Of a stretch of 64,000 bases of DNA, positions 29,465-63,841 are shown piece by piece. The DNA lies in IMG/VR virus record IMGVR_UViG_3300029094_000045; one strand, 5' to 3'. The position numbers and the translations under genes were made by a program. Under the pieces are notes generated by a model that was not told the DNA's origin, made no database searches, and was given only the letters and a program-made list of their open reading frames with translations. This stretch comes from a virus. Every line of letters begins with the position of its first letter. Positions within the stretch are counted from its first letter, which is position 1.

Positions 29465-29471
29465 TCTATAT

Positions 29472-34222: not shown

Positions 34223-34270
34223 AAACCGATGTCGAGAGGCGTGCGGGTTCAAGTCCCGCTGGTAGCACCA
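34185..34270 (+). tRNA. tRNA-Leu (anticodon TAA), type II, CCA encoded
   Basis: Acceptor gctacca/tggtagc; D stem gcg/cgc with a 12-nt loop; anticodon stem tcggt/accga; loop cTTAAAa; 13-nt variable arm; T arm gcggg-TTCAAGT-cccgc; A-CCA. Confidence 0.65.
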
Positions 34271-40505: not shown

Positions 40506-41738
40506 ATGTACATCACATATTGGAATCCGCCTAATACACGGCAGATTACTTTTGATGAAATCATCGCAGGCGTACAGAATGTTGAAGCGCTGCATTATGG
40601 CGGCAGCACCACCTCGACGATTACGGTGTGTCGTAATGACCTTACTCCGCGCCTGCAGAAAATCACCAATATCCCAGATATGATCGCAAAACTTACGGAG
40701 TTTAATCAGAAATATGCAGGACTCGAAGCGTGCGACCTCGCTGCTCATTATGAACATTTTGAGATTCCTAAGAAGTCCGGCGGCTGGCGTCCTATCGATG
40801 CTCCGGATAAGGAATTGTCTGATGCTCTGGTTGAGCTGCGCGAATTACTTCACAGCTTCATGATCGCAGACTATCACACAAATGCTTTTGCTTATATTCC
40901 GAATCGTAGTTTTATCGACGCAGTCCGCAAACATCAGGCTGGTCACATTAAAACGAAAAAGAATGAAGAAACCGGAATACAGACGACAGTGACTTTTGAA
41001 AATCACTGGGCAGTGAAGTTTGACTTGCATGGATTCTTTCCGAGCACAACGCCGGATTTTCTTCTTGGGATGTTGAGCATTATTTATCCGTTCGCTCTGA
41101 TTATGAAGGATGAACGGGGGCACGAACAGCTTGCCAACGCCTTAAAACTTTGTTTCCTCCACGGTGGTTTGCCGCAGGGGACGCCTATCAGTCCATGGCT
41201 TACCAATGTTATGATGATTCCATTTGATCATCTTATCACGCGCAAGCTGTGTTACGGCTATAAGGCAAAAGACGGTATCGAACGTGAATTTACCTATACC
41301 CGTTACGCTGACGATATGATGTTTAGTTGTTATCACAGTTTTGACCCGATGGAGATCCAGCAAATCGTCATCGATGGTTTGAACTTCATCCATGCACCAT
41401 TTACTTTAAATGAAGCAAAAACTCATTACGGCAACCGCCATTCCAGTAAAAACTGGTGCCTTGGTTTGATGTGGAACAAGGATAACCAGATCACTGTTGG
41501 ATGGCGAAATCTGAAGATGTTTCGGTCTGCCATGAAAAACTACATTGATGCGAAAAAGCGTGGCGAAACGTGGGAGCTTGAAGATCTTCAGTCGTTTATG
41601 GGCAAGCTTAATTACTATCATATGGTCGAACCCGATGTAATTGATGATTTGGTTCATCGTTACAATGAAAAATTTGGTGTTGATGTGATGGCTATGCTCA
41701 AAGACGATCTTCGTCTTAAAGATGGCGAAGCCGCGTAA
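40506..41738 (+). CDS. reverse transcriptase of retron/group-II type
   Basis: RT motifs in order: IPKKSGGWRPIDAP (1/2), FDLHGFFPS (A), GLPQGTPISPWLTNVMM (B'), YTRYADDMMFS (C, YxDD), then an LG region. QGxxxSP plus RYADD is retron/group II-like rather than DGR-like (IGxxxSQ). Confidence 0.7.
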   Translation: MYITYWNPPNTRQITFDEIIAGVQNVEALHYGGSTTSTITVCRNDLTPRLQKITNIPDMIAKLTEFNQKYAGLEACDLAAHYEHFEIPKKSGGWRPIDAPDKELSDALVELRELLHSFMIADYHTNAFAYIPNRSFIDAVRKHQAGHIKTKKNEETGIQTTVTFENHWAVKFDLHGFFPSTTPDFLLGMLSIIYPFALIMKDERGHEQLANALKLCFLHGGLPQGTPISPWLTNVMMIPFDHLITRKLCYGYKAKDGIEREFTYTRYADDMMFSCYHSFDPMEIQQIVIDGLNFIHAPFTLNEAKTHYGNRHSSKNWCLGLMWNKDNQITVGWRNLKMFRSAMKNYIDAKKRGETWELEDLQSFMGKLNYYHMVEPDVIDDLVHRYNEKFGVDVMAMLKDDLRLKDGEAA

Positions 41739-43460: not shown

Positions 43461-44285
43461 ATGGCCGAAGCTGTTAAAAGGAAAAAATATGAAAAGTTGG
43501 TCCAATTCCCCAAAGTCTCTGATAGCACTCACTTCACCATGAGTGAAGAAGAACTTCAGAAGATGATTCGGGATATTGCGGCTGCGGCTCAGAAGTCTAG
43601 AAAGCGTAAACCTAAACCTACATATAGTCTCTATACGAAGGATGGACGCAGAAAGCCCACGCCAGCCGATCCGATTCGTTCGAAAGAAGATTTCTGGAAA
43701 CTGGCTGATTATTTGGGTTCTACTGGAGATCCTAAATTCCAGCTGCGGAATAAGACGATTTTTATTTTTGGCTGTAGTATCGGCGTTCGCTGCGGCGATT
43801 TGTTGAACCTAAAAACAGGAGATGTTTATGAGGCGAATGGTTCGGTGAAAGAACATCTCGAACTAATGGAAGAAAAAACGCGCAAAATCAACGTTTGTAA
43901 AATTCCCAAAATGGCCGTGGATGTTCTGGAACAGTATCGTGATGAACAGAAATTCTCTATCGATCAGCAGAATTATCTATTCCGCAGCCGTAAAAATGGT
44001 TCTCTAAATGTGCGCAGTTTCTATCACATCTTGAAGAACGCAGGCAAAGTATGCGGGCTGGATATTGACCTGTCTACTCATACGATGCGTAAAACTTATG
44101 CAATGGCAGCTCTTCAAACAGCAGATGGAACAGAGGCGTCTGGCGATACGTTGGAGTTGCTTCAGGTGAAATTCAAACACAGTGATAAGCGCGTTACTAT
44201 GCGATACATTAAGGCGGATCAGGATAAAATCGATAAGATGTCCAATCGCGTTTCAGAATGGTTTGAGGATGGAGGAACTAAATGA
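43461..44285 (+). CDS. tyrosine recombinase (integrase-family catalytic domain only), embedded in the paralog array
   Basis: Box I GVRCGDLLNLK; box II LSTHTMRKTYA (HxxR); catalytic Tyr in KRVTMRYIK. 274 aa with no N-terminal arm-binding domain. Its stop overlaps the start of paralog 3. Confidence 0.6.
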   Translation: MAEAVKRKKYEKLVQFPKVSDSTHFTMSEEELQKMIRDIAAAAQKSRKRKPKPTYSLYTKDGRRKPTPADPIRSKEDFWKLADYLGSTGDPKFQLRNKTIFIFGCSIGVRCGDLLNLKTGDVYEANGSVKEHLELMEEKTRKINVCKIPKMAVDVLEQYRDEQKFSIDQQNYLFRSRKNGSLNVRSFYHILKNAGKVCGLDIDLSTHTMRKTYAMAALQTADGTEASGDTLELLQVKFKHSDKRVTMRYIKADQDKIDKMSNRVSEWFEDGGTK

Positions 44286-46003: not shown

Positions 46004-48070
46004 ATGTCTGACTTTAAGGAATTTCGTGCGCTGCTGCAGGACCACTTCAATGAGATGGTGAAGGATGGCGCACCTCTGTTTATCACCAATGCAGACGAGG
46101 ATAAGCTATATGGTCTCTATTTGGACAGCTTCCCGGCTGGTACGAACTCCATCTTCCGTAAGCGGCGTGAGTATGATTGCTCCTGCTGCCGTCGTTTCGT
46201 AAAGAATATTGGTAAGCTGGTTTCCTTTATGGATGGTCAGATGGTCACCGTCTGGGATTTCGATACCAAGTCCGACGTTTATCAGCCGGTTGTGGATGCG
46301 CTGGCTACTTATGTGAAAACCTGCGCTGTTGTGAATCCGTATTATGTTAGCCGCAATATGATCTCTGATGGCAAGTTCGGCACGGAGATGAACTATGAGT
46401 ATGATGCTAATCATAAGGCGGTTCACACCTGGGATCATTTCGCTGTCGAGATTCCTCAGCGGTTCATTGTCAATTCCTGTGATGTGACTACCAAGATGGC
46501 CGAGTGGCGTGATTCTGCTAATGTGTTCAAGCGTTCTCTGGAGGAGCTGACCATGGGTGCCGTGGACACCGTACTTGAGCTGATTGCGCAGAACAGCCTG
46601 TATCGCGGCAAGGAGTTTGAATCTCTGGTTCGTGGCTTCAAAATCGATAAGCGAGCGTATGATCGTCTGCCTGATGAAAAGAAGTCCGCTTATGTTTGGA
46701 TGGCTCCCGGCGGTGCGTCGATGAACCGGCTTCGTATTCGTAACACCGCTATCGGCACCCTTCTTATCAATTTGAGCGAAGGTATGGATGTGGATTCCGC
46801 CGTTACCGCCTTTGAGAAGGTTGTCGCTCCTGCCAATTATAAGCGTCCCAAAGCTATTTTCACTAAGAAGATGCTGGAAGATGCACAGAAAACCGTTACT
46901 GAACTGGGTTACATGAACAGTCTGGGTCGCCGATTTGCCACTCTGGATGATATTACTGCCAACAATATTCTGTTCTGCAACCGCGATGCCGCTCCTCGTG
47001 TGCTTGGCGCTATGAATCCGTTTGAAGCAATGGCTAAGACTGTTGCGATTGATCCCAAGAAGTTTGGCCGTGCAGAAGAAATTGGCATCGACAAGTTCAT
47101 CAAGGATGTACTGCCGACTGCGGCTGGCTTAGAACTGTTCATGGAGAATCGGTTCGAAAAGAATATGATGTCTCTGATTGCTCCGCAGGATAAAAATGCG
47201 CCGTCTATGTTCAAGTGGGCAAATGGATTCAGTTGGGCGTATACAGGTAACATGACTGACAGCCAGATTCGAGAGAACGTCAAGGCTGCTGGCGGCAAGG
47301 TGGATGGCGTGCTGCGTTTCTCGATCCAGTGGAACGATGTGCCGGGTGAATGGGATGAAAACGATGAGGATGCTCATTGCATTGAACCTGGTAAGAATCA
47401 TATCTATTATGGCAATAAGTGGAATCCTCGTACTAATGGCCGCCTAGATGTTGATATCCGTTGTCCTAATCAGGGTAAAGCTGCGGTCGAGAATATCACC
47501 TGGCCTGACATCAAAAAGATGAAGGAAGGCGAGTACAGCTTCTATGTAAACTGCTACGCTAATCGTGGTGGTAAAACTGGTTTCCGGGCTGAAATCGAGT
47601 TCGATGGCAACATCTACTCTTTCAACTACGATAAGCCGCTGCATGGTGGTCAGAATGTCGCCGTGGCAAAAGTCACGCTGAAGGACGGCAAGTTCTCTAT
47701 CAAGGAGCTGCTGCCCAGTTCTACCAGCACCCGCGAGATCTGGGGTGTGAATTCCAATCAGTTCGTACCTGTGTCTGTGGCGATGTACTCTCCGAACTAC
47801 TGGGACGAACAGACCGGCAATGGCAATCGTCACTACTTCTTCATGCTCAAGGATTGCGTCAACCCTGAAAAGCCGAACGGATTTTACAACGAATTCCTGA
47901 AGGCGGAATTGCTACAGCATAAGCGAGTATTTGAGGCGCTGGGTTCTCAGATGGCAGTTCAGTCGGTGGACGATCAGCTGTCTGGTGTTGGTTTCTCTGA
48001 GACTCAGCACAACAGCTTTATTGTTAAAGTGCAAGGGGCAACGGAGCGAGTTCTGAAAGTGGTGATTTGA
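46004..48070 (+). CDS. 688-aa hypothetical protein inserted within the paralog array
   Basis: Long ORF with an RBS and no recognisable motif. Its stop overlaps the start of paralog 8 (TGATG). Confidence 0.45.
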   Translation: MSDFKEFRALLQDHFNEMVKDGAPLFITNADEDKLYGLYLDSFPAGTNSIFRKRREYDCSCCRRFVKNIGKLVSFMDGQMVTVWDFDTKSDVYQPVVDALATYVKTCAVVNPYYVSRNMISDGKFGTEMNYEYDANHKAVHTWDHFAVEIPQRFIVNSCDVTTKMAEWRDSANVFKRSLEELTMGAVDTVLELIAQNSLYRGKEFESLVRGFKIDKRAYDRLPDEKKSAYVWMAPGGASMNRLRIRNTAIGTLLINLSEGMDVDSAVTAFEKVVAPANYKRPKAIFTKKMLEDAQKTVTELGYMNSLGRRFATLDDITANNILFCNRDAAPRVLGAMNPFEAMAKTVAIDPKKFGRAEEIGIDKFIKDVLPTAAGLELFMENRFEKNMMSLIAPQDKNAPSMFKWANGFSWAYTGNMTDSQIRENVKAAGGKVDGVLRFSIQWNDVPGEWDENDEDAHCIEPGKNHIYYGNKWNPRTNGRLDVDIRCPNQGKAAVENITWPDIKKMKEGEYSFYVNCYANRGGKTGFRAEIEFDGNIYSFNYDKPLHGGQNVAVAKVTLKDGKFSIKELLPSSTSTREIWGVNSNQFVPVSVAMYSPNYWDEQTGNGNRHYFFMLKDCVNPEKPNGFYNEFLKAELLQHKRVFEALGSQMAVQSVDDQLSGVGFSETQHNSFIVKVQGATERVLKVVI

Positions 48071-48342
48071 TGGAACTTAAATATCATGTCGGCGATAAGG
48101 TTATGATTCGTCCGGATCTTAAAGCGGGCAAAGTGTGTGAGATGTATTCGGGACCAATGCGTGGACGATATACTTACAGTATCACACCTAGTATGACACA
48201 GTTGGTTGGTAAATTTGCTACGATTGAAAGAATTTGTGATGGGGGAACTGGATATAGACTTAAAGAATATGGTTTCTCATGGACCGATGGAATGCTGCTG
48301 CCGGCTGATTTAAACGAGTGCGTTTGTGCTTCGCTGTTGTGA
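48067..48342 (+). CDS. tandem-family paralog 8 (ends NECVCASLL)
   Basis: Carries the shared N-domain and tail. Confidence 0.55.
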   Translation: MMELKYHVGDKVMIRPDLKAGKVCEMYSGPMRGRYTYSITPSMTQLVGKFATIERICDGGTGYRLKEYGFSWTDGMLLPADLNECVCASLL

Positions 48343-48351
48343 GGTGGTCTG

Positions 48352-48627
48352 ATGAAATATCGATACGAACCCGAAGACGCAGTTTTTGTTCGGCCTGATT
48401 TGAAACGTGGCTCCAACTATTGGATGCGTTCTGGGGTGAATGAAAATAAGCAATGTCTTGTAGCTGTTGGTGATATGTTAAATTTCGTAGGTAAAATGGT
48501 TCATATTTCTGGATATTCTCGGGATGGTTTTTATTACATCAAAGAAGATCCGGGGCAATGGTGCTGGACTGATGAGATGTTCGTTGGTCTAGCTGGCAAT
48601 GAGTGCTACTGCGAATCTCTGCTGTGA
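48352..48627 (+). CDS. tandem-family paralog 9 (ends NECYCESLL)
   Basis: Carries the shared N-domain and tail. Confidence 0.55.
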   Translation: MKYRYEPEDAVFVRPDLKRGSNYWMRSGVNENKQCLVAVGDMLNFVGKMVHISGYSRDGFYYIKEDPGQWCWTDEMFVGLAGNECYCESLL

Positions 48628-48635
48628 GGTGCCAA

Positions 48636-48911
48636 ATGGACTATCGGTACAAAATAGGAGAGGCTGTTTGGGTTAGAGACGACCTCGAATATGCAGCCTC
48701 TTATGATATGACGCCTGGCCCTTATCCAAAAGGCAATCGTAATGTCGTGACAGATAAAATGGCCAAACTCCATGGGCGGCTTGTCCATATTAAAAATTAT
48801 TCTGCTGCCGGCCAATATTATGTGGAAGAAACAAATAGTCTTCAATGGACCGACGATATGTTTGAAGGCTCAGAAAATAATAATGAATGCCTCTGCGAAT
48901 CTCTACTGTGA
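48636..48911 (+). CDS. tandem-family paralog 10 (ends NECLCESLL)
   Basis: Start taken at MDYRYKIGEAVWV. Carries the shared N-domain and tail. Confidence 0.55.
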   Translation: MDYRYKIGEAVWVRDDLEYAASYDMTPGPYPKGNRNVVTDKMAKLHGRLVHIKNYSAAGQYYVEETNSLQWTDDMFEGSENNNECLCESLL

Positions 48912-48919
48912 GGCTTGTT

Positions 48920-49207
48920 ATGGATTATGTAATTCCACTTCGATTTAAGCCTGGCGATCATGTTGTGGTTCGTCCGGATTTGAATATCAATACGGTCTAT
49001 CAAACATTTGGAGGCAAGAATGCCGGTTATCGTACAGCCCCAACGATGAATATGGTTCGCTTTGCGGGAATGGAATCTGAGATTAAAGAGTATTCTAGGT
49101 CTCAAAAAACTGTAAAACTGAAGTACTGTGGTTTTTGTTGGACAGAACAAATGCTGATTCCCAAAAGTTTTGTAGAACAGGAATGTGTTTGTGAATCACT
49201 TTTATAA
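48920..49207 (+). CDS. tandem-family paralog 11 (ends QECVCESLL)
   Basis: Start taken at MDYVIPLRFKPGDHVVV. Carries the shared N-domain and tail. Confidence 0.55.
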   Translation: MDYVIPLRFKPGDHVVVRPDLNINTVYQTFGGKNAGYRTAPTMNMVRFAGMESEIKEYSRSQKTVKLKYCGFCWTEQMLIPKSFVEQECVCESLL

Positions 49208-49621
49208 AAATAAAGGAGAGATAATTATGGAAAAGAATCTGTTTGAAATTGCGACCCGTAATCGCTATCGCTTCAACTATAAGGGCGTTATGACTGTTGA
49301 AGATCTGTGGGATCTGAACGTTGAGGCTCTGGATGCAATCTTTAAGACTCTGAACCGCCAGAAGAAGACTGCCGATGAGGACTCCTTGCTGGCCGCGAAG
49401 AGTGCCGAGGATACTGAACTGGCAAACAAGATCGAGCTGGTCAAGTACATCGTGTCTGTCAAGCTGGCCGAGTCCGAGGCTCGTGTAAATGCTGCCGAGA
49501 AGAAGGCGCAGCGCGATAAGATTATGAAGATCGTGGCTAAGAAGAAGGATAAGGAGCTGGAAGATATGGATGTTGATCAGCTGATGAAGAAGCTGGAAGA
49601 GCTGAACTAAGGAGAAGCAAG

Positions 49622-50725
49622 ATGAAGATTGTTGAAAGTTCTGGCCGTTTACATCTGTATGGCGATGACATGAAAGCATATGACCAGATTCCGGCTGGTA
49701 CATACGATATCTGCTTTTCCAAGATGACCGGTTTTTATCTGGTTCGTCGTCCTGACATGGCGGTTGATGAAAAGGTGTATGGTGTCGCCGGGGAAAAGGC
49801 TGCGAAGGTAATGAGCACGTTCAAGGTGTTTACCCGAAATCTTGGTGTAATCCTCAGCGGTGATAAGGGCATCGGTAAGTCTATGACTGCTAAAATGATT
49901 GCTAAGGCCGCTATTGATGAGGGCTATCCTGTTATTTTGGTGAGTGAATACGTCCCCGGTATTGCAAGTTTTATTGAGTCAATCACACAGGAAGTTATGA
50001 TTCTGTTTGACGAGTTTGATAAAACATTCCGTAAAACAGATGACGATACGCCACAGGATACTATGCTTAGTCTATTCGACGGCACTACCGCAGGCAAGAA
50101 ACTGTTTGTGGTCACGTGTAATGAACTGCGGAGCCTGAATGACTATCTGGTAAATCGTCCCGGTCGTTTTCATTATCACTTCAGATTTGATTATCCAAAG
50201 GCGGACGAAATTCGCACTTATCTACAAGACAAGCTCGACCCCAAGTATTATGGAGAAATCGAATCTGTTATTCAGTTTTCTTCTCGTGTCGCTCTGAATT
50301 ATGATTGCCTGCGTTCTATTGCATTTGAGTTGAACCTTGGCACTGCATTTAAGGATGCGATTTTGGATTTGAACATCGTCAATCTGGACGATTTGAGTTA
50401 CAAGATTACCGCAATAACTGAAAGCGGTAAAAGGGGCTCTACTACTGGCAGTTACGATCTCTTTAGCGAGGGCCAAGATTATTCCGATTATTTTACTCCG
50501 ATCGTCGGAAATGACAGTTTTAAAATTCGATTCAATACTAACGATATTGAGTTTGATCCCAAGACAAATAGGTGTCTGATCATGGGTGAAAATTTGGATG
50601 TTATAAATCCTTACGACAAGGATACTGAGTGGGAAAAGGAAGACTATGCAGCGTTCGAAAAGGAAACTATCAAATGTATTGTGTTTGAACGCCGCAGTGA
50701 CCGCAGTCTGCATTACGCAGTCTAA
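49622..50725 (+). CDS. AAA+ family ATPase
   Basis: Walker A GDKGIGKSMTAKMIA and Walker B VMILFDEFDK. Confidence 0.5.
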   Translation: MKIVESSGRLHLYGDDMKAYDQIPAGTYDICFSKMTGFYLVRRPDMAVDEKVYGVAGEKAAKVMSTFKVFTRNLGVILSGDKGIGKSMTAKMIAKAAIDEGYPVILVSEYVPGIASFIESITQEVMILFDEFDKTFRKTDDDTPQDTMLSLFDGTTAGKKLFVVTCNELRSLNDYLVNRPGRFHYHFRFDYPKADEIRTYLQDKLDPKYYGEIESVIQFSSRVALNYDCLRSIAFELNLGTAFKDAILDLNIVNLDDLSYKITAITESGKRGSTTGSYDLFSEGQDYSDYFTPIVGNDSFKIRFNTNDIEFDPKTNRCLIMGENLDVINPYDKDTEWEKEDYAAFEKETIKCIVFERRSDRSLHYAV

Positions 50726-50736
50726 GGAGGCCCAAT

Positions 50737-51564
50737 ATGGTCAAAGCAAATCATTATGAAATCAGTTCTTTCCCTGATGGCACCCCACTGATCAAGAAGG
50801 ATCTGACTATCAATTATCTCAATGTGATCAGTATCGTCTGGACATTTGAATCCATGGCCGAACTTCCCACGGTCATTATGATCGCAAAGGACGCAAGGGA
50901 TAATGGGGCAGAAGTCGAACTGTTTATGCCGTATATTCCGAACGCTCGTATGGATCGCGTTCATAGTGGCGAGGATGTGTTCACCCTCAAGTGGTTTGCA
51001 GAGGAGATCAATCGATGTGAATTCAGCCGCGTTGTTGTATTTGATCCTCACAGTGATGTGGCTCCGGCTCTGATTGATCGTTGTGAGGTACGAACTCCGA
51101 TTCGTGAGATCTGTCAGGCAATCGAAGAAAGCAAGCCTGATGTGATTTACTTCCCGGATGCCGGCGCAATGAAACGATACGAGGAAACTGTTCACTGGGC
51201 ACTCGATCGTGTCGGTTGTAAGGCTTATATCATTCACGGAGACAAGAAGCGTGAGTGGAAGACCGGAAAGATTCTCGGTTTGGATGTCACCGGTTATCCT
51301 CCCAAGGGCGGCAAAGTTCTGATGATTGATGACATTTGCTCTTACGGAGGCACCATGTTCTATTCGGCTGAAAAGCTGAAGATGTTGGACGTTGGAGATA
51401 TTGATATGTATGTCAGTCATTGTGAGAACAGTATTCTGGACAAGGAGCGCGGTCATCTGTTTGACGACCCGGAGCTGATTCACAAGGTATATACCACGGA
51501 CAGTATCTTCACTGGCCATCACGACAAGATTACTGTATTAGAGCATCATTGGGATGAGGACTGA
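50737..51564 (+). CDS. ribose-phosphate pyrophosphokinase (Prs) family enzyme; candidate ADP-ribose pyrophosphate synthetase (Adps) of an NAD+ reconstitution pathway
   Basis: Collinear with Prs: FMPYIPNARMDR (Prs IPYFGYARQDR), VVVFDPHSD (Prs TVDLHA), VIYFPDAGAMKRYEE, and the PRPP-binding loop VLMIDDICSYGGTM (Prs VLVDDMIDTGGTL). Confidence 0.6.
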   Translation: MVKANHYEISSFPDGTPLIKKDLTINYLNVISIVWTFESMAELPTVIMIAKDARDNGAEVELFMPYIPNARMDRVHSGEDVFTLKWFAEEINRCEFSRVVVFDPHSDVAPALIDRCEVRTPIREICQAIEESKPDVIYFPDAGAMKRYEETVHWALDRVGCKAYIIHGDKKREWKTGKILGLDVTGYPPKGGKVLMIDDICSYGGTMFYSAEKLKMLDVGDIDMYVSHCENSILDKERGHLFDDPELIHKVYTTDSIFTGHHDKITVLEHHWDED

Positions 51565-51824
51565 CATGAAGCATGCAAAAGGTGAAATCCTTAGTGCATA
51601 TCAGCGCTTAACGAAAAGTATCAAATATGGAGATGCATACTGGTCTGAAAAAGCAATGATAAGTGATGCTCTGAGTGATTACTTCAATCGGATAGAGAGC
51701 AAGAAAGTCGTAATCGATCCAAAATATAAAAGCTACAGATGTCCAAAGTGCAATACAGCATTAATTGGTCAATATGATCACTACTGCGGACAATGTGGTC
51801 AGAAATTGGACTGGAGGATTAAAA

Positions 51825-53303
51825 ATGATCAATATTAACCCAATGCTGCTGTGTGACTTCTACAAGACAACTCACAGTAAGCAGTTTCCGGCCGGCACCA
51901 CCAAGCTGGTCAGTTACTTTACTCCTCGTATGAGCCGTCTGGATGGCGTGGATGAAGTCGTCGTGTTCGGCATTCAGGCATTCTGCAAGGATTATCTGGT
52001 GCAGTATTTCAATGACAACTTCTTCGACGAACCAAAGTGTATTGTAATTCCTCAGTATAAGCGATATCTGGATGCGACCATTGGCAAGGATGCTTACGAT
52101 CTGAGCAAGATTGCAGCACTACATGATCTGGGATATCTTCCTGTTGAAATCAAGGCTCTGCCAGAAGGTACTCGTTGCCCGATCCATGTGCCGTTCCTTG
52201 AGATGAGCAATACGCACCCTGATTTCGCATGGGTTCCGCAGTTCCTCGAATCTTTTACGAGTTCTGAGCTGTGGCATCCGATGATTTCTGCAACGGTCGG
52301 AACTCTGTATCGCGATATCGTGGACAAGTATTACGATGAAACCGTTGAAGAGGGTGTGCCCCATGCTCGTGCTCTGGGTGATTTCAGCTTCCGCGGTCAG
52401 GAGTGTATGCAGTCGGCAGTTAAGTCAAGCGCCGGTTGGTGTCTGAGTTTTCTGAATACGGCTACTGTACCTGCGATTCCGTATCTGGAAGAAATGTATC
52501 GCTGCAATTGTGAAGAAGAGCCTGTTGCGTTTGGCGCTGTTAGCACAGAGCATAGTGTGATGTGTTCTAACTTCGCAGTCGATGGCGATGAGATCACTTT
52601 CATCCGCCGGGCGCTGACTGAGCTGTATCCGAATATGAGTTTCAGTATGGTGTCTGATTCCTATGATTACTGGAATCTGGTCGATAATATTCTGCCGCAG
52701 CTCAAGGATGAAATCATGGCGCATAATGGCACGCTGCTGATTCGTGGCGACTCTGGTGACCCGGTCGAAATCGTTACGCAGACCGTCTATCATCTGTGGG
52801 ACATCTTCGGCGGCACAGTCAATAGCAAGGGTTATAAGGTGCTCGACCCTCATGTAAAGGCTCTGTATGGAGACTCTATTACTGTGCAGCGCTGTGAAAA
52901 GATTTATGCCGAACTCAAAGCACACGGTTTCGCCTGCAACAATGTAAGTCTCGGCGTTGGTTCCTTCTCCATGCAGTGTATTGAACAGAATGGGCAGCTG
53001 AAACCGTTCACCCGTGATACGTTCGGCATGGCAGTCAAGGCAACTTATGGCGTGGTTAACGGCAAGGAGATCCAGATCTTCAAAGACCCAAAGACCGATA
53101 CCGATCACTTCAAGAAAAGTCTGAAGGGTATGTGCTATGTCACCAAGGATGATTCTGGGAAGCTGATTTGCACAGATGGTCTGATGAATCATGCCGCGCA
53201 TTCGGATGGGAATCTTCTGCAGACCGTATTCCGTAATGGCGCGATGATCAAGGAGTACAGTCTGAAGGAAGTCCGCGACCGACTGTGGAAAGGGAAGTTT
53301 TAA
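51825..53303 (+). CDS. nadV: nicotinamide phosphoribosyltransferase (Nampt/NadV) family enzyme; candidate NadV or nicotinamide-ADPR transferase (Namat)
   Basis: Family signatures LLCDFYKTTHSKQFP, PVEIKALPEG, GDFSFRGQE, VSDSYDYWN, IRGDSGDPVE, KGYKVLDPHVKALYGDSIT match the Nampt blocks NTDSYK.TH, IKAVPEG, GYRG, VSDSYD, IRPDSG, KGYK..P...GDG. Start taken at the ATG at 51825 after GGAGG. Confidence 0.7.
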   Translation: MININPMLLCDFYKTTHSKQFPAGTTKLVSYFTPRMSRLDGVDEVVVFGIQAFCKDYLVQYFNDNFFDEPKCIVIPQYKRYLDATIGKDAYDLSKIAALHDLGYLPVEIKALPEGTRCPIHVPFLEMSNTHPDFAWVPQFLESFTSSELWHPMISATVGTLYRDIVDKYYDETVEEGVPHARALGDFSFRGQECMQSAVKSSAGWCLSFLNTATVPAIPYLEEMYRCNCEEEPVAFGAVSTEHSVMCSNFAVDGDEITFIRRALTELYPNMSFSMVSDSYDYWNLVDNILPQLKDEIMAHNGTLLIRGDSGDPVEIVTQTVYHLWDIFGGTVNSKGYKVLDPHVKALYGDSITVQRCEKIYAELKAHGFACNNVSLGVGSFSMQCIEQNGQLKPFTRDTFGMAVKATYGVVNGKEIQIFKDPKTDTDHFKKSLKGMCYVTKDDSGKLICTDGLMNHAAHSDGNLLQTVFRNGAMIKEYSLKEVRDRLWKGKF

Positions 53304-53537
53304 TGATTCTCGAAATTAGTGCCGAAACGGCGTGTGAAATAATCAGCCATCCACTGGAATCGTCTTCTGATAGATTTTGGCTGCAAGAAAATGACCGTTA
53401 TGTTGGAATCGATAATTCTGAGCATTCGGCATGGGTCGAAGACTTCTCCACAAAAGAAGAATGCCTTAATTGGCTCGAAGAGAATCAAAAAGATGACAAG
53501 TAACCAACAGAGATGCTGTCGAATCGAAGGTGAAAAC

Positions 53538-54011
53538 ATGGCAGTTGTTATCAAAGAAGGCAACGTATTTGATTCTGACGCAGACATTATCTGTCATCAG
53601 GTGAATTGTCAGGGCGTCATGGGGTCAGGCGTTGCTAAAGAAGTTCGCGAGCGTTATCCAGAAGTATATGCTCAGTATAAGTATCTATGTGATATAAATA
53701 AGGGTTATCCTGCCGGATTACTGGGAAAGGCACAAATCGTTTCGACTGACAACGTATTTTCTCGATATATCGCCAATTGTTTTGGCCAGGATAAATACGG
53801 TTATGATGGCGCTCAGTATACTTCAGTTGGTGCATTGATGGAAGCCCTGATTTATGTTGCAGAGCAGGCAAGGCAGTTTAACTGGAAGGTCGCTATGCCG
53901 TATAAAATCGGATGTGTCCGTGGTGGGGCTGATTGGGATACGGTTAAGAAAATAATCGATGTCACGTTTCAGGGTGTCGATGTAGAACTGTGGAAACTGG
54001 AGGGTAAATAA
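53538..54011 (+). CDS. macro domain protein (ADP-ribose binding/processing)
   Basis: VIKEGNVFDSDADIICHQVNCQGVMGSGVAKEV matches the macro-domain N-terminal Gly-rich ADP-ribose pocket (Gx(I/V)xxxxxDAIVNAAN...GGGVA pattern). Confidence 0.55.
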   Translation: MAVVIKEGNVFDSDADIICHQVNCQGVMGSGVAKEVRERYPEVYAQYKYLCDINKGYPAGLLGKAQIVSTDNVFSRYIANCFGQDKYGYDGAQYTSVGALMEALIYVAEQARQFNWKVAMPYKIGCVRGGADWDTVKKIIDVTFQGVDVELWKLEGK

Positions 54012-54012
54012 T

Positions 54013-54771
54013 ATGCGTAAGTATGAATTTAATGCGGCAAAAACCAAGGATGAAATCGTCGAGTGGATTCGGAACTATTTCCGCAAGAATGGTCCTGATT
54101 GCAATGCAGTGATTGGTATCTCTGGCGGCAAGGATTCCAGTATTGTGGCTGCTCTGTGTGTGGAAGCTCTTGGTAAAGATCGAGTTATTGGTGTGCTGAT
54201 GCCGCAAGGCGTACAGGACGATATTGATGTGGCGCGAGATCTGGTCAAGTATCTGGGCATCAAGTCGTTCGAGATCAATATTGCTGAGACTGTGAACACG
54301 CTGCTGGCCAAGGGACGAATTGCCGGTCTATGCGATTCCAAGCAGGCTCGTGTGAATCTGCCGGCTCGAATCCGTATGGCGACTCTGTTCATGGTATCTC
54401 AGAGTATGAATGGACGAGTAAGCAATAACTGCAACGCTAGTGAGTCATATATTGGCTGGGCTACGATTGGTGGAGATGGGTTTGGCCAGTTTAGCCCTCT
54501 CGGTAAGCTGACCGTCACCGAAGTAAAGGCTGTTGGTCGTGAACTTGGTCTTCCGGAAAAGTTTATCGAGAAAGCACCTGCAGATGGACTGACTGGCAAA
54601 ACCGACGAGGACAATTTTGGCTTTACTTACGACTTCCTTGACAAGTATATCCGTACTGGAGATTTCGGCGGCGATAGCGCTACGGCCGCCAAGATTGATC
54701 GAATGCACTACGCAAACACATTCAAGCAGCTTCCGATGCCGACATATAGTTCAAACCCGATTGACTGGTGA
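54013..54771 (+). CDS. nadE: NH3-dependent NAD+ synthetase
   Basis: PP-loop VIGISGGKDSS (SGGxDS); ~250 aa; collinear with NadE. Confidence 0.6.
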   Translation: MRKYEFNAAKTKDEIVEWIRNYFRKNGPDCNAVIGISGGKDSSIVAALCVEALGKDRVIGVLMPQGVQDDIDVARDLVKYLGIKSFEINIAETVNTLLAKGRIAGLCDSKQARVNLPARIRMATLFMVSQSMNGRVSNNCNASESYIGWATIGGDGFGQFSPLGKLTVTEVKAVGRELGLPEKFIEKAPADGLTGKTDEDNFGFTYDFLDKYIRTGDFGGDSATAAKIDRMHYANTFKQLPMPTYSSNPIDW

Positions 54772-54792
54772 GGCTGATTAAGGAGAATCATA

Positions 54793-55365
54793 ATGGAAAA
54801 GACAAAGGTCGATGTCCTGATTGTTGTCGATATGCAGAACGATTTTGTAACCGGTTCACTGGGTACTCCTGAAGCTCAGGCCATTGTGCCAAAGGTCGTG
54901 GAGAAGATCAAGAACTGGAATGGTCCGGTATTCTACACGATGGACACTCATGATGAAGATTATCTTAATACTCAGGAGGGCAAACATCTTCCCATTATTC
55001 ATTGCGTTGAAGGAACAGACGGATGGAAGTTGATAAACGAAATCGGAGATGATTTTGTCGCAGACTACGAGCAGATCTATCATAAGAAAACGTTTGGTAG
55101 CTATGAGTTGTTCATTGATGCAACGTTAGACGACAATCAAAGAATCTATCAAACGTTGTTCCCTGTGAATGTTGGTTCCATTACTTTGATTGGGCTTTGC
55201 ACAGATATTTGTGTGATTACAAATGCGCTGCTTTTAAAGACGGCAAAGCCTGAAGTTCCTATCATTGTGGATGCAAGTTGCTGCGCCGGTGTTACTCCTG
55301 AGTCCCACAAGAATGCGTTGGCCGCCATGAAGATGTGTCAGATCGAGATTGTGAACGAGAGATAA
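54793..55365 (+). CDS. pncA: nicotinamidase / isochorismatase-family cysteine hydrolase
   Basis: VLIVVDMQNDF; catalytic Cys in LIGLCTDICV. Confidence 0.55.
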   Translation: MEKTKVDVLIVVDMQNDFVTGSLGTPEAQAIVPKVVEKIKNWNGPVFYTMDTHDEDYLNTQEGKHLPIIHCVEGTDGWKLINEIGDDFVADYEQIYHKKTFGSYELFIDATLDDNQRIYQTLFPVNVGSITLIGLCTDICVITNALLLKTAKPEVPIIVDASCCAGVTPESHKNALAAMKMCQIEIVNER

Positions 55366-57491
55366 AATTATGCCATATTGTGTTACGGTTGCGCTCGTTG
55401 GTCACATTTATGTCGATACGGATGATTCGGATGAGGCGGTGGAAATCGCAAATTCACATCCAGAAGATATTAAATGGTCTAAAAATTATACAGTTACGAA
55501 TTGTGTGGAGTCAGATTGAAATCATAAACGAGGAATAAAATGCACTACGTTAATGGAGATATTATTTTGGACGCTGATGAAGCGAGACGATTTCAGCATC
55601 TTCTAAGGCATCCAAACGTAGAGGAAGTACAAAGGAAGTTAAAGGCTTGTAACGATGCCCTCGCTGAAATGAATTATCGGGAGAACGAAGATGGGACTAC
55701 TTCTTTTGATATTGACATTGAGGTGTAAATCATGCGCTACAGAGTAGATGTGAAAGTCGAGGGATACATTCTGGTTGAAGCAAAAGATCCTTTTGAAGCT
55801 CATAAAATCGTAGACATGAATCAAGAAGACATCGTTTGGGATAACTGGATGACATATACAAGCTGTAAAAAGATTCAAGAAACCTAATATGGAAGAGATT
55901 ATTATTTTCGGTTAATGTCCGAATGCTAGGTAATTGGCGGTACTAGGGTAGACATAACCGCTACCAGAATGAAAATTGTAAGGAGGCTATCATATGATTC
56001 CAGTCATTGAAACCGACGCCAAGATTAAAATACCAGGTGGATATCTTGTATGCATTAAAACTGGAGCCGCAGACGATTACCCGGGCTTTGGTGTCTTTTA
56101 TTCTAAAGATGGGAAAACGGCTAATTGGGATGACCTGATTTCAATAACGGAACATAATTCTACGTTTGATAATATCCAAACGGTCGGTTATCGGCAGGGA
56201 CAAGAAAATTATGTCGCCGCTATTCGTTTTGAAGACGGAGATATTATTGAAAATTGAGGTGTAGATATGAAAAATCCATGCCAGTATTGCGTAGCACCAG
56301 AGCGTCACCCGGGTTGCCATGATCATTGTGAAAAGTTGAAAAGCTATCATGAGAGCGATGAATATAAAAAGTTATGTGACTACAAGGATACATATTTTAA
56401 GACCATTTCTGTAAGCTCTGTTGGAATCAATCGAAGAATGAGATATTTAGCCAAAAAAAGATGTAGTTTACATAGATACAAGTACGCTATGAAGTGAGGC
56501 ATATACAATGTGGGTTGTAATTGAAAATAAGTACGCTAAAGATAAGAAAATTGGTTACGCAGAACTTGAAACCATTGATAAAAATAATGGTGATGAATGG
56601 TTCTCTGTAATGTATCGAATCAATGAAGATAACGATCTTGATGTTTATGTACAGTACGAAATCGATGAAGATGAAATAGAAAAAATCATAAAAACTCTTG
56701 CAATTTATCTTGAAGATGAAGGACTTTGGGAGGACTGATTATGTGGGCCCTAAGAAAAGTTCATGCACTGCACGATGGTTGGGGCTGGGTCTGGAATGGA
56801 TCATTCCATCATAAGGACGTGTTCGTTGATAAAAACGAGAACCCAAAAGAAATCTTCTGGCAGGAATGTCAGATGTTTTTCTCAGGATTACTTAAGTAGG
56901 TGCGAGATTGTAGATGATGGCGATATTCTAGAACTTCAGCTAAAGGATTCCGGGGAACCGGTTCTCGCTATGACTATGTAAAGAGGAATGAATGTGGAAA
57001 AGTATATTTTGATCGCCGTTAACGAACGGAAAATTTTCGAACCTGATTATTTTGAAACTCTTGATGAGGCTCAAGCGGAGATGAGAAAACGTGTTGAGCA
57101 AATCGTGAGTCAATCTGGTGGAGAAACGAAAGTTGATTTTGAAATCAACAATGACAGTGCCTATGTGACAGCCGCTCATTTTGAGCTTGGCGATGGGAAT
57201 TGGGATTTTGCAATCTGCGAGGTGGTTGATACGAAATACCCTGAAAATATTAAAGACGCCATGTTTACTTCTGTGTGGGACGGTGGTTTTGAGATCACTG
57301 CGAAATGCAAGGTGAATACGGAAACAAAAGAGATTTTCGATATCGAAGTGTCGGAATCAAATGCAGACATGGTGGAACATCTTGACGAAGAATATGTTAC
57401 GATTGACGGCGTGGATTATTCAGCTGCAAATCATGATGACATCGATGAAGACGATAAAGAAACTTATTGGTATGAATAAGAGGTATACGAT

Positions 57492-60098: not shown

Positions 60099-61073
60099 AT
60101 ATGACACACGAATGGGTGGAACAGAAGAATAAAGAATATCATAAACAGTTTAAAGACTATCCACAGGCATTGGTAGATGAATGGAATCGAATTCCTGAAT
60201 GGGTTAAGAACATCATTGATCGTCGTGTTGTTGATGTCGAAATAAAACTGTTTGAGACGCTTGCAAAGCTTAACGAGGAACCAGATAGTTTCGATGTACA
60301 TAGATTGGTCGCAGAAACGGATAGTAGTTCCTTTTTTGTGAAATGGTATATTGATCATGATATCGAAAGGGGCGCAGATCCCGATGAAGAGCTGAAGAAA
60401 ATCTCGAAGGAATTTGAAAAACTGCGAGATATGGCAGAAAAATATGAAGAATTCTTAGAATATAAAGATCGTTATCTTGAAGCAGAAGATCGTATTATGG
60501 AGTTTGATGGGGATATTATCATTACAGATCCATGTTATCTGTCTCACAATATGTCAAATGACGAGCGGAGAAAATTTGAATGTTGCGATATCAGCAGTCA
60601 TGGCATCATTGGAATAGAGTCCAATACTTACTACGGTGATTGGGGTTGTACTACATTCGTGCCCGAAACGAAAGTTAAACTGGGCGAATTCTGCGCAGAT
60701 GCCGGTATGGTATGTGTGGCTGATTTGGCCTCCGTCTTAAAGTTTAATCCAAAATACAATGATCATCTTGAAAAGCCTTGGTGTGCAACTTGGATCAAAA
60801 ATTTCAAAGGCGTTGTTCGTATCGCTATTGATGAAAACAAAGAGCGCTGGCCGGCTTATATTGTTCATGTGGTAGGGTATGGTGTCAATAAAGAAACAGG
60901 AGAGACGATCGAATTTGATACGGTGCAAACAGGGTTATGATGAACTTTATTTTGAGATTATTATCTCGATTTGTTGATTTTTGTCTTGAGTGGGAATGGA
61001 TTATCCTTCCGTTATGGGCATTTTGCTTTATTGCTGTGATGTTAATAATCTCAAGTGTAAAGAGGTGGTAAAA

Positions 61074-61877
61074 ATGACACGAGAAGAATTACAGTGCATC
61101 ATTGCGGGCGAACCGTATGATTTTCTTCGCACCAATCCGCATCTTGGTAAGCATTTGATGTTTCTTACTATTGGCGGCAGTCATGCTTATGGGACTAACG
61201 TGGAAGGGTCCAATGTGGATATCCGGGGTATTGCTTTGAATTCACGGGAAGATTTACTTGGTCTTGGCACTTTTGAGCACTGGGTTGATGAGACGACTGA
61301 TACTACGGTGTTCGGATTCAAGAAAGCTATTGAACTCATGTGCAGCGGAAATCCGAACATATTGGAACAGCTAGGCAATGCAGACGATTTGATTATCAGT
61401 TATCATCCGGCTACGAAGTTGCTAATGGAGAATAAGAAACTTTTCCTGTCAAGACAGGTGGTTTATTCGTTTGGCAGCTTTGCAGATAAAATGTTTAATG
61501 AAGCGGTTAAGTATGGTGAGTTTTACAATCAAATGCAGAAGTTTGGCAGCGTTTGCGATCTATTTAATGTTAAGCGTAAGATGAACAAGACCATTATGAA
61601 CATGATCCGTCTGTATCTTATGGTATTTGACATTCTGGAGAAGGGCGAGATCATAACGAATCGTGCCGCTGCACATGAGCTGCTGATGGAAGCCCGCAGT
61701 GGTGGATTCCAAAATGAAAACGGCTATATCAGTCATGAGCTGAAGAACCTGCAAAAAGAATACGAAAAGCGTTTGCAATATGATAGGGCGAATACCATGT
61801 TGCCAGAGCGGGTCAATATGAAACAAATCGAAGAGTTAGTTATGACTATCAACGAGATGGCTCTAAAGGTTGCGTAA
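61074..61877 (+). CDS. nucleotidyltransferase-fold (Pol-beta superfamily) protein
   Basis: TIGGSHAYGTNVEGSNVDIRGI has the GS-x(9-13)-D pattern. The second acidic residue is not obvious, so the call is tentative. Confidence 0.3.
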   Translation: MTREELQCIIAGEPYDFLRTNPHLGKHLMFLTIGGSHAYGTNVEGSNVDIRGIALNSREDLLGLGTFEHWVDETTDTTVFGFKKAIELMCSGNPNILEQLGNADDLIISYHPATKLLMENKKLFLSRQVVYSFGSFADKMFNEAVKYGEFYNQMQKFGSVCDLFNVKRKMNKTIMNMIRLYLMVFDILEKGEIITNRAAAHELLMEARSGGFQNENGYISHELKNLQKEYEKRLQYDRANTMLPERVNMKQIEELVMTINEMALKVA

Positions 61878-63841
61878 ACACATCGCTATTATAATGAGGA
61901 AGGAGAGCGCTCTCCTAAAGTGAGGGTGTGAAAATTGAATATGTTAAAGCTGTCAGTGTCGGACGCAAACGGCAAGATGGGGAGCATCAAGTCTATCTCG
62001 ATGCCTCGTATTAAAACCTGTGCCTTGGGCGTTCCGTGTGCGAAGACGTGCTATGTCGGTCACTTTGATTGGCGAACGTCGGTACGAAATGCATATGACA
62101 ACAATTTGAAACTGTGGTTGACAGACCCTGACGGCTTTGAAATGCAGGCTACTGCGGCCGCCTATGGATCCTTTTATTTTAGGTGGCATGTCAGTGGTGA
62201 CATTGTGGATATGCAGTATCTTGAAATGATGTGCCGTATCGCAGTCAAGTTGCCGCGCACCCAATTTCTAGCATTCACTAAGAAATATGATTTGGTCAAT
62301 GCTTTTATGGAAGCGGGTGGTACGATTCCAAGCAATTTACATATTTTCTTTTCATCTTGGCCTGGCTATAATATGAGCAATCCCTATAATCTGCCAGTTG
62401 CTTATGTAGCATTTAAAGATGGATGTTGTGAAGCGCCGGCCGATGCACATGAGTGTTCTGGGCATTGCGAGGATTGTGCTTACGCTGGTAAAAACTGCTG
62501 GGTTCTGGGTCCAGGACAGTCGATCGTTTTGAAAGAACATTGAGGGGATTTCCCAGACCCCTATTATAATAAGGTGGGAAGGTGATAGATTTTGGAGAGT
62601 TCTGAGTACGAGAAGGCTGTGAGTTGGCATGAAGAATTCATTGGATGGGCGAAAGACAACAACGCGACTGGCTCTGATGAATACAAGATAACTCGCTATG
62701 CTTTAGAATGCATTCAATTTAGAAACAAGTTTGAGAATTTTGTTCAACGGAACTATAAGGAGGGGCAAGTGTGAGCTATGTTCTTACCAATGGGCACACA
62801 TATATCACAAAAAAGCCCAACAACAAATTCACAGTGACATACGACCCAGGTCTGGCGGTTCAGTTTGATTCCGAGAATAAAGCTTGGAATGTTCTCAAAA
62901 GTCTGCCGAATGCATACAGAGGACAAGGGTATCTGCCGAAGGGTGCTGAAGTTAAAGAAACGAAGGCATCATTAAAAGATCCGGGTATCTCAAAGGCAGA
63001 GTCGCCGCAACAGAAATTGGCACCGGTGTCGTATCCTGTCGAAGACTCTGTGTGGATGGCTGAGTTCAAGAGTCGGCTGAAAATTGTAGATGAGACACTT
63101 GGGATGCTGAAGACAATGTATGCAGGGCTCTATAGTGATCTGAATAAGGCCACTGATGAGATCGATGATCTTGAACATGCAATCGAATTTACCCGAGCAA
63201 ACGCTGTGAAGCGATGCTATCTGGAAAACGAGTTGAAGAGAGTTCGAAAGATCCGTCGTGAGTGCAAAGACGCAATGGGATTGATTGAAATGATTCTGAA
63301 GTTCGACCTGGACGACTGGGGAACCGGAAAGGTAACATCTGCGATTGTACATTTGGAAAATCGGTGCTATGTGCCAAAGGTTAGAGAAGATATTTTTACA
63401 TAAGGAGTGAAAAATTATGAGTGGTGCTGTTTCGTTCGTTTTAGGTTTGTTGGGGCTGGGGGCTGCTGGAGGCATTAACCTCGGACAGAGTGTAAGCCAG
63501 AAGAAAAAAGAAGCTGAATTGGCGGAGATGTACGGTTGGAACGAAACTGATATTGAAGTCAAGAAAATGCGTGAGCGTGTTCGTAAAGAGTGGTGGAGCA
63601 TTCCAGACTGTCATCCAAACTGTCTAGGCAAGTGGCCCAGCGCATATCCCAGTCATATGGGGCCGTACTATCAGACAAAGTTTTGGTTCCGGGACCATTT
63701 GAAAGCTAAAGGGATTCCTTATGATGATGTAATCCTTGATGACGTATGCGGTGTCAATTACGAAAAATTGATGAACGAACAATTTCGAAATGCAGGCAAG
63801 AAGAAGCGCAGATGGTTATGATTTTAAGATACGAGGTAATT

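Follow-up and report, generated by a model that had tools for sequence, protein, structure and literature searches.

Seven open reading frames (ORFs) lie close together between positions 50,737 and 55,365 of a 64,000-nucleotide stretch of DNA (hereafter the window) from a gut phage, virus record IMGVR_UViG_3300029094_000045. On balance, this block looks like a single operon for a nicotinic acid-based variant of NARP1, a pathway by which phages reconstitute nicotinamide adenine dinucleotide (NAD+); the variant would restore NAD+ after host NADase defences have fired. NARP1 itself consists of the enzymes Adps and Namat (Osterman et al., 2024, bioRxiv 10.1101/2024.02.11.579819; structures in PMC12774641 and PMC13586617). 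The seven ORFs are co-directional and overlap or are spaced by 1–31 nt. Five encode enzymes, namely a Prs-like protein, a Nampt-like transferase, a macro-domain protein, a NadE of the NH3-dependent type and a nicotinamidase, and all five have family matches, which are strong except for the Prs-like protein, whose match is indirect (Table 1). The same five genes had been named within these positions in an earlier reading of the DNA (hereafter the original prediction), and each is borne out on the plus strand by its family match; a further ORF of 72 amino acids was absent from that list. The gene set of the block is found again in 80 IMG/VR contigs, with transferase identities of 63–99%, which argues for a conserved module and against a chance juxtaposition.

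In the proposed scheme, PncA would convert nicotinamide, a product of NAD+ cleavage, to nicotinate, and the Adps-clade enzyme would make ADP-ribose pyrophosphate (ADPR-PP) from ADP-ribose (ADPR) and ATP. The transferase, which carries the replacements H187G, D215A and A242S, would then join nicotinate to ADPR-PP, giving nicotinic acid adenine dinucleotide (NaAD) and pyrophosphate (PPi), and the NH3-dependent NadE would use ATP and NH3 to turn NaAD into NAD+. The macro protein could supply free ADPR, drawn from ADPR-1''-phosphate or from some other ADPR conjugate, in the manner of NARP1-AP, which is made up of Adps, the macro phosphatase Adpp and Namat (bioRxiv 10.64898/2026.01.28.702374). Each of these steps, like the counter-defence role, is a prediction from gene content, clade membership, residue replacements and co-occurrence. 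Such an enzyme set would be closed, needing neither PncB nor NadD. A route through nicotinate would allow a nicotinamidase to share an operon with a Namat-type enzyme without starving it, and would account for the presence of NadE, the retained Adps gene and the retained adenine-clamp residues. Since the transferase product would be NaAD, and not NAD+ as in NARP1, one further ATP-driven amidation step would be needed.

The original prediction left it open whether the first two enzymes are Prs and NadV or Adps and Namat, and proposed the phylogenies that have now been made; both proteins fall inside the NARP1 clades with 100% bootstrap support. For the Prs-like protein this was a neighbor-joining (NJ) tree of 33 sequences with 200 bootstraps, in which it groups with the validated Adps proteins of SPbetaL1 and ICP1. 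The 100% clade comprises every Prs-like protein encoded beside a Nampt-family gene plus a protein of Prevotella phage Lak-B9 (no Nampt-family gene was found within the stretch fetched from this phage), and excludes the Prs of E. coli, B. subtilis, Acinetobacter, Rhodococcus and Nostoc as well as two divergent Prs. The subfamily of the window protein has 93% support and is nested nearer to SPbetaL1 Adps than ICP1 Adps is. Family models and pairwise searches agree with this placement. The window protein scores 70.7 bits against TIGR01251 (cutoff 113), with 106 bits for SPbetaL1 Adps, 98 for ICP1 Adps and 423 for E. coli Prs, and, as with the validated Adps, no NCBIfam Prs cutoff is reached. In BLAST comparisons the window protein scores 135 bits with SPbetaL1 Adps, 92 with ICP1 Adps and 25–48 with six Prs references, canonical Prs lying at 36–48.

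The residues F18, R87, H121, D161, K185, D212 and D213, identified as catalytic or ADPR-binding in the ICP1 Adps structure paper, are all present in the window protein, but canonical Prs share these seven and they are hence not discriminating. Its loops do set it apart from Prs. The hairpin DKKREWKTGKI is of the Adps type (K.R[DN]..TG.I) where Prs have KRRPR.N, and the donor (PP) loop reads DDICSYGGT, compared with DDLSSFGGT in SPbetaL1 Adps and DD..DT.GT in Prs; the ribose-5-phosphate loop of Prs, DT[AG]GT, is thus SYGGT in the window and SFGGT in SPbetaL1 Adps. Both the KRRPR flexible loop and the DT[AG]GT loop are missing, as are the C-terminal α11–α12 helices, and the protein has 275 residues vs. 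310–330 for Prs. Its gene and that of the transferase are separated by one 94-amino-acid ORF in the window and are adjacent throughout the related loci; by the NARP1 criterion, 97% of Adps-clade genes have a Namat homolog in their immediate vicinity. The Prs-like protein is probably an ADP-ribose pyrophosphate synthetase.

The transferase has its best PDB matches in 9W5X and 9W5W (448 bits), which the depositors' paper describes as SPbetaL1 Namat, while canonical bacterial and human Nampt score 180–188 bits. A bootstrapped NJ tree of 28 sequences places it in a 100% clade with the Namats of SPbetaL1, ICP1 (whose partner Adps has been validated experimentally) and Felixounavirus, Staphylococcus, Mycobacterium and Pseudomonas phages. 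The A. baumannii “NadV” belongs to this clade as well, and the Nampt proteins of Xanthomonas and Ralstonia fall outside it. The trees and the family tests agree in assigning both enzymes to the NARP1 type. The succession of a gene of the phosphoribosyl pyrophosphate (PRPP) synthetase family, a small zinc-ribbon ORF and a Nampt-family gene had originally been recognized as the NARP1 pairing, and the clade membership of both enzymes supports this. A housekeeping Prs/NadV identity of the pair is ruled out by the family-model scores and both trees.

The transferase departs from the published Namat in its pyridine pocket. In SPbetaL1 Namat the nicotinamide pocket is formed by F189, R192, D215, A242, R306, D13' and Y15'; D215 hydrogen-bonds nicotinamide, and the D215A mutation lowers NAD+ formation about 8-fold (Namat structure paper). 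The equivalent residue of human Nampt, Asp219, has been described as the determinant of substrate specificity. In SPbetaL1 numbering, the window transferase has G, A and S in place of H187, which neighbors the pocket, D215 and A242 (hereafter the triad), and keeps F189, R192, R306, D13 and Y15 of the pocket together with the catalytic His, D308, the phosphate-binding residues, R40, F392 and T398-R399-D400. A D219S mutant of human Nampt reportedly accepts nicotinate. The replaced residues suggest that the protein is a nicotinate ADP-ribose transferase forming NaAD.

Its donor would probably still be ADPR-PP, because nearly every locus has an Adps-clade gene next to that of the transferase, R40, F392 and the TRD residues are kept, and an insertion in the clamp is conserved. 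The selectivity-clamp helix of Namat stacks on the adenine of ADPR-PP, and PRPP-using Nampts carry G-G-A-L-L-Q-K at the position of the clamp motif. In the window the clamp loop PRMSR aligns with PRTSR of SPbetaL1 and the stacking residue R40, at a position taken by Arg, Lys or Tyr in Namat, is conserved. The clamp helix reads GSFSMQC-IEQNGQLKPF-TRD; the Phe at position 3 is kept, Tyr396 is replaced by Cys and nine residues are inserted, so the published Namat motif is not matched. The insertion is strongly conserved in 116 relatives as GVGSFS[MF][QE]C[IVL]E..G.[LF].P[FY]TRDT, with an invariant Pro and an aromatic residue right before TRD. Basal members of the variant group, encoded by a C. 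botulinum plasmid and the phage phAss-1, keep the canonical clamp motif GS[YF].Y.Y.TRD (GSYSYQYNTRD and GAYTYQYVTRD, respectively).

Could the block instead be a Preiss-Handler operon built from non-orthologous parts? A PRPP synthetase and a nicotinate phosphoribosyltransferase would then make nicotinic acid mononucleotide (NaMN), host NadD and the phage NadE would complete the route, and ADPR would be no substrate. Databases do annotate the two proteins as “ribose-phosphate pyrophosphokinase” and “nicotinate phosphoribosyltransferase,” prs-nadV operons controlled by NrtR have been read in this way since 2008 (PMC2330246), Namat can use PRPP in vitro, and the pocket switch is equally compatible with nicotinate and PRPP. 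We nevertheless consider this reading improbable. Two enzymes known from experiment to pyrophosphorylate ADPR bracket the clade in which the Prs-like protein lies, this protein has neither of the two Prs loops described above, and SPbetaL1 Adps was concluded not to be a Prs (Osterman et al., bioRxiv 10.1101/2024.02.11.579819). Moreover, the transferase conserves R40, F392 and TRD, and the basal variant members have the complete Namat motif where Nampts have G-G-A-L-L-Q-K. An E. coli NadD query also found no NadD in the cluster.

The altered pocket is linked to the nicotinate route proposed here by the company that the transferase keeps. The survey took in more than 200 variant-triad loci from phages, Clostridia genomes and metagenomes, and nearly all have PncA and NadE beside Adps and the transferase. 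The 80 IMG/VR relatives have G/A/S at 187/215/242 without exception and encode Adps-like, NadE and PncA-like proteins, clustered within a few kb and arranged in two or more gene orders, and in about 70 of them the macro gene is present too. Among the 120 nearest proteins in a database of 5.8 billion, A215 and S242 are universal and G187 occurs in 119, the other protein having Ser at this position. PncA and NadE accompany all 16 variant-triad members of the tree. The association extends to a 210-kb C. botulinum plasmid (transferase identity 50%; genes for Prs, isochorismatase, transferase and NadE) and to the gut phage phAss-1 with 11 IMG/VR relatives (32% identity; nicotinamidase, Prs, transferase and NadE), all with the G/A/S triad. 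The window subfamily groups with the plasmid and phAss-1 in a single clade (94% and 64% bootstrap). About 70 Clostridia genomes likewise combine the variant triad with PncA and NadE. In metagenomes, 39 loci have at least 2.5 kb on either side, and 36 of them encode PncA, NadE and Adps, two encode PncA and NadE without a detected Adps, and one is without PncA; CSS and SAS versions of the triad also come with the module. Two metagenome contigs of 227–236 kb (L332 and L334) encode an SAS-type transferase in the order PncA-NadE-transferase, and no Adps-like gene was detected within 6 kb. They may break the four-gene rule, or may encode an Adps that has diverged too far to be detected.

Classical transferases with the H/D/A triad are found in different surroundings. 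None of the 12 in the tree has a PncA or NadE neighbor, and 80 classical loci from IMG/VR yielded Adps in 76 and a macro domain in 11 but PncA and NadE in none; as this set was retrieved by patterns containing H187 and A242, its triad is fixed by construction, which counts against our reading insofar as the set is informative solely through its missing PncA and NadE. Within INPHARED a Nampt-family match occurs in 2045 records and a PncA-like gene in only seven, all from the human gut. An exhaustive HMMER search, reduced to 150 representatives of 50%-identity clusters, showed a bimodal triad, with H/D/A in 93, [GSCA][AS]S in about 55, the mixed form CDA in only one and HEA in two. Many of these representatives are 550–1100 amino acids long; P0160 has an insertion of about 300 residues within the clamp helix, possibly an intein, and others have insertions near residue 320. 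Further IMG/VR scans returned nothing for the C. botulinum plasmid transferase and P0125 as queries, and one locus for P0145. NadE and PncA are thus near-obligate partners of the transferase subclade in which nicotinamide-pocket residues are replaced. Taken together with these replacements, the partnership favors a route by way of nicotinate and NaAD over the published step from nicotinamide to NAD+. The original prediction had NadE and the nicotinamidase reinforcing a counter-defence island. Both genes do lie downstream, but near-obligate partners of the transferase are more than mere reinforcement; the island itself we infer.

A different explanation is that the block is a classical NARP1-AP, making NAD+ from nicotinamide and ADPR-PP, to which two separate salvage genes have been added; PncA and NadE would push surplus nicotinamide through the host Preiss-Handler route, and the substitutions would be neutral or would broaden specificity. 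This agrees with the Adps and Namat clades, the macro arrangement and the intact catalytic core of the transferase, and SPbetaL1 Namat with D215A still retains about one-eighth of its activity. It is hard to reconcile with a triad change that tracks PncA and NadE almost perfectly over more than 200 loci and down to 32% identity, and that occurs in none of the 92 classical members, 80 of which come from the pattern-selected set. A phage nicotinamidase would also destroy the substrate of a nicotinamide-dependent Namat from the same operon, and the module was found with neither PncB nor, with E. coli NadD as the query, NadD. We therefore judge this explanation unlikely, if less so than the Preiss-Handler operon.

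The partner enzymes fit the roles given to them in the nicotinate route. The isochorismatase-family protein looks like a nicotinamidase that would convert nicotinamide to nicotinate. Its best PDB match is the P. horikoshii pyrazinamidase/nicotinamidase (1ILW/1IM5, 3e-13), and most other matches are nicotinamidases; on NF008623 it scores 42 bits, below the cutoff of 174. The motifs VVDMQNDF, DTH...HCV and TDICV align with segments of 1ILW (VVDMQ.DF, D.H, HCV and T..CV), which carry the catalytic Asp and Cys of the Asp-Lys-Cys triad and the metal-binding D.H...H residues of nicotinamidases. NadE is a single-domain protein without the CN_hydrolase (glutaminase) domain. It is most similar in the PDB to the NH3-dependent NAD synthetase 2e18 (112 bits) and next to 3fiu, presumably the F. 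tularensis NadE, and is predicted to convert NaAD to NAD+. A NadE of the nicotinamide mononucleotide (NMN) synthetase type is disfavored, as the closest structure is a usual NadE of the NH3-dependent kind and a query with E. coli NadD revealed no NMN adenylyltransferase.

The macro protein is a candidate ADPR-1''-phosphate phosphatase (Adpp-like) or other ADP-ribose-releasing hydrolase. Its closest solved relative is the DarG macrodomain (5m3i, 3e-11); Poa1p (6lfq–6lfu) matches at about 1e-5 over residues 8–72 only. It is 26–43% identical to the macro proteins that adjoin classical Namat genes. Lying second downstream of the transferase, the gene comes under the definition of NARP1-AP, a PF01661, PF14519 or PF20016 protein within two genes of the NARP1 pair (bioRxiv 10.64898/2026.01.28.702374). 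The macro domain had been proposed as an ADP-ribose-handling member of the cluster, and this match to the published arrangement is in its favor. There are differences from NARP1-AP, in that the macro gene here comes after that of the transferase, the best structural match is a macro domain of the DarG and not the Poa1p type, and the gene is present in part of the variant clade only and is rare in the bacterial operons.

The module is also found in bacteria. The closest non-phage relatives of the transferase are chromosomal (60–68% identity), and a scan of one genome per species found the gene in 155 genomes. The best 80 of the 155 are mostly Clostridia (Lachnospiraceae, Ruminococcus, Oscillospiraceae, Peptostreptococcaceae, Mogibacterium, Filifactor and the isolate Pseudoruminococcus massiliensis). 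The Clostridia operon has the form [NrtR]-PncA-Adps-like-transferase-NadE-[NrtR], with NadE of the NH3 or the glutamine type and only an occasional macro or PARG-like gene, and it has ordinary flanks such as ABC transporters, glutamate dehydrogenase, SecDF and Hsp70-type proteins. Some Lachnospiraceae have a conserved ORF of 111 amino acids between the transferase and NadE. No PncB accompanied the module in the loci examined, and E. coli NadD as the query found no NadD in them. In the classical operon of C. acetobutylicum the order is nrtR-pncA-pncB-nadD-nadE (PMC2330246). Given this order and the lack of a detected NadD, Adps and the transferase appear to stand in for PncB and NadD, and both pairs would deliver NaAD. 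The two operons share PncA as the first enzyme, NadE as the last, NaAD as the penultimate compound and, in bacteria, an adjacent NrtR; they differ in that the enzymes of the Adps and Namat clades would draw the ribose-phosphate-adenylate part from ADPR and not from PRPP and ATP. ADP-ribose suppresses the binding of NrtR, the Nudix-related NAD regulator, to DNA (PMC2330246), and release of the regulator by ADP-ribose is consistent with a pathway that consumes ADPR.

The paper that defined NrtR in 2008 described NrtR-controlled prs-nadV operons in which a second prs paralog was left unexplained (PMC2330246). The prs-nadV pair of A. baumannii (Table 1) lies inside the Adps and Namat clades and has an intact H/D/A triad and the clamp GSFTYNYLTRD; the second prs paralog of the gamma-proteobacterial NrtR regulons may for this reason be a bacterial NARP1. 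Like the phage module, these operons (PMC2330246) have a divergent second prs beside a Nampt-family gene, with the A. baumannii pair in the same clades. Unlike it, their transferases keep H/D/A and the canonical clamp and are without PncA or NadE neighbors, and so resemble classical NARP1.

In the transferase tree, phage and bacterial sequences interleave, one phage sequence pairing with a Clostridium sequence at 98% bootstrap. This implies repeated exchange, and the four core genes have probably passed between phages and the NrtR-adjacent operon of Clostridia. What, then, is the module for in the phage? The chemistry could be as proposed here and the phage role that of a captured host NAD-recycling or auxiliary metabolic set, keeping NAD+ high during infection of Clostridia regardless of any defence. 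The interleaved sequences agree with this, as does the occurrence of the same four genes on the chromosomes of at least 70 Clostridia species, with housekeeping neighbors and NrtR. Against it, experiments have shown that NARP1 modules built on these two core enzymes counter defences, ADPR is not substantial in uninfected B. subtilis, so that the pathway would idle unless NAD+ were cleaved, and the added macro domain parallels the anti-aRES extension of NARP1-AP. A purely metabolic role is accordingly rather unlikely, although it is the most credible of the three alternatives. The counter-defence island of the original prediction is supported as far as the NARP1 clades go, but a module that is also a chromosomal, NrtR-linked operon of Clostridia may be a captured host recycling pathway. 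As the same four genes make up that operon, a counter-defence role in the phage is plausible, and is put no higher than that.

Several further points weigh against a nicotinate-based counter-defence pathway. The chromosomal homologs point to housekeeping recycling as a possible primary role. Both trees are NJ trees on Kimura distances, not maximum-likelihood trees. The exchange of Tyr396 for Cys and the nine-residue insertion depart from the published Namat clamp motif, which makes the use of ADPR-PP less certain for the window subfamily than for the basal variant members. The step from loss of the Asp to use of nicotinate is drawn by analogy with human Nampt, and the variant transferase may have residual or dual nicotinamide use, since D215A in SPbetaL1 reduces activity without abolishing it. 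Finally, no NadD homolog was found in the 64-kb window, which is part of a phage genome of about 145 kb, or in related loci, with E. coli NadD as the sole query.

Compared with the systems already described, the module is closest to NARP1. The two have in common adjacent Adps-clade and Namat-clade genes in a phage, a predicted first step from ADPR and ATP to ADPR-PP, and the fold and catalytic core of the transferase; the G/A/S triad, the clamp-helix insertion and the presence of a nicotinamidase and NadE distinguish the module of the window. NARP2 (Nampt and Nmnat, phage KVP40) and NARP3 (PnuC and NadR) are likewise phage-encoded means of rebuilding NAD+ (PMC13464706). Unlike the module described here, their routes draw on PRPP or nicotinamide riboside together with an adenylyltransferase and have no Prs-like partner. 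An E. coli NadD query found no adenylyltransferase of this kind in the window or in related loci.

The features of the window and of the bacterial loci are collected in Table 1. The starts of the Nampt-like gene (an ATG) and of the macro gene were set by the onset of homolog alignment. Two of the seven ORFs are variable inserts; among the 80 related phage loci, about 40% have the zinc-ribbon ORF, which the bacterial operons lack altogether, and about 15 have the 72-amino-acid ORF. A promoter and terminator scan of positions 49,000–56,500 gave counts at chance level and was uninformative on transcription units. The closest GenBank record is MT835544, a human-fecal phage contig without annotation (89% DNA identity).

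Table 1. Positions and family matches of the features discussed (window coordinates unless another sequence is named).
Feature	Positions	Strand	Length	Matches and remarks
Prs-like protein (Adps clade)	50737-51564	+	275 aa	PHROG 619 “ribose-phosphate pyrophosphokinase,” 6e-59; Pfam Pribosyltran, weak (0.003)
Zinc-ribbon ORF, CxxC...CxxC	51554-51838	+	94 aa	zinc-ribbon Pfam matches sub-threshold only; PHROG 10714, 1e-8
Nampt-like transferase (Namat clade)	51825-53303	+	492 aa	Pfam NAPRTase, 5e-26; NAMPT_N, 2e-11; PHROG 448, 4e-162
Small ORF	53285-53503	+	72 aa	PHROG 37721, 4e-8; without Pfam match
Macro-domain protein	53535-54011	+	158 aa	Pfam Macro (PF01661), 2e-8; PHROG 335 “phosphatase,” 5e-42
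NadE, NH3-dependent	54013-54771	+	252 aa	Pfam NAD_synthase, 2e-49; TIGR00552, 168 bits (cutoff 63.65)
Isochorismatase-family protein, PncA-like nicotinamidase	54793-55365	+	190 aa	Pfam Isochorismatase, 5e-23
Seven tRNA genes and tmRNA gene	29204-34270	+		Pro, Met, three Leu, two Gly; tag peptide ANNNSYRCAA*
Reverse transcriptase	40506-41738	+		Pfam RVT_1, 3e-15
Phage_integrase-family protein	43461-44285	+		4e-14
688-aa protein and AAA ATPase	46004-50725	+	688 aa (first protein)	PHROG 1735, 2e-253; PHROG 2376, 8e-111 (AAA ATPase)
Four tandem paralogous ORFs	48067-49207	+	91-96 aa	without Pfam match
RlaP-family and GP88-family proteins	60996-62543	+		RlaP: RNA-repair, DNA polymerase beta-like nucleotidyltransferase
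Clostridia operon, example L087 (among L085-L173)	6543-12753 of L087
Clostridia operon, example L090 (among L085-L173)	6639-11068 of L090
A. baumannii prs-nadV pair	about 3045-5485 of NZ_CP104448

Directly upstream of the module are genes for a 688-amino-acid protein and an AAA ATPase. They accompany it in close phages (transferase at least 94% identical) and are absent from phages with 63–78% identical transferases and from bacteria, so they probably lie outside the NAD module. The same part of the window has four tandem paralogous ORFs that are 31–37% identical and all end in EC.C[AE]SLL, and a few kb upstream of the module are genes for a reverse transcriptase and a Phage_integrase-family protein; RlaP-family and GP88-family proteins are encoded downstream. 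Elsewhere, seven tRNA genes stand with a tmRNA gene, and near 16 kb gene orientation changes from minus to plus together with the sign of the GC skew. TAG almost never ends a plausible gene in the window; phAss-1, the distant carrier of the module, uses genetic code 15.

The literature on NARP1, NARP1-AP, NARP3, RyDEP and the Namat and Adps structures yielded no link to NadE, nicotinamidase, nicotinate or NaAD, and the phAss-1 paper lists a nicotinamidase and leaves the cluster uninterpreted, which suggests that the nicotinate-route variant is undescribed. In a wider form, the proposal is that Namat-clade enzymes with [GSCA][AS]S are nicotinate:ADPR-PP transferases that make up, with PncA, Adps and NadE, a “deamidated NARP1,” serving gut phages in counter-defence and many Clostridia in an ADPR-induced, NrtR-controlled recycling that bypasses PncB and NadD. 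We give this wider form an even chance of being right. If it is, the reaction of nicotinate with ADPR-PP to NaAD and PPi would be new to NAD biochemistry, and phages would have a further route for rebuilding NAD+ besides NARP1, NARP1-AP, NARP2 and NARP3. Databases label both classes of transferase “nicotinate/nicotinamide phosphoribosyltransferase,” and the 187/215/242 triad with PncA and NadE neighbors would provide an annotation rule separating two functional classes. During infection, conversion of nicotinamide to nicotinate by the phage would alter the metabolites available to host NADases and sirtuins. NARP1 chemistry would, moreover, not be confined to phages but would be the basis, too, of a regulated recycling operon that is widespread among gut Clostridia and in which NrtR, a sensor of ADPR, controls a pathway that consumes ADPR, and the question posed in 2008 by the second “prs” paralog of NrtR regulons would have a likely answer.

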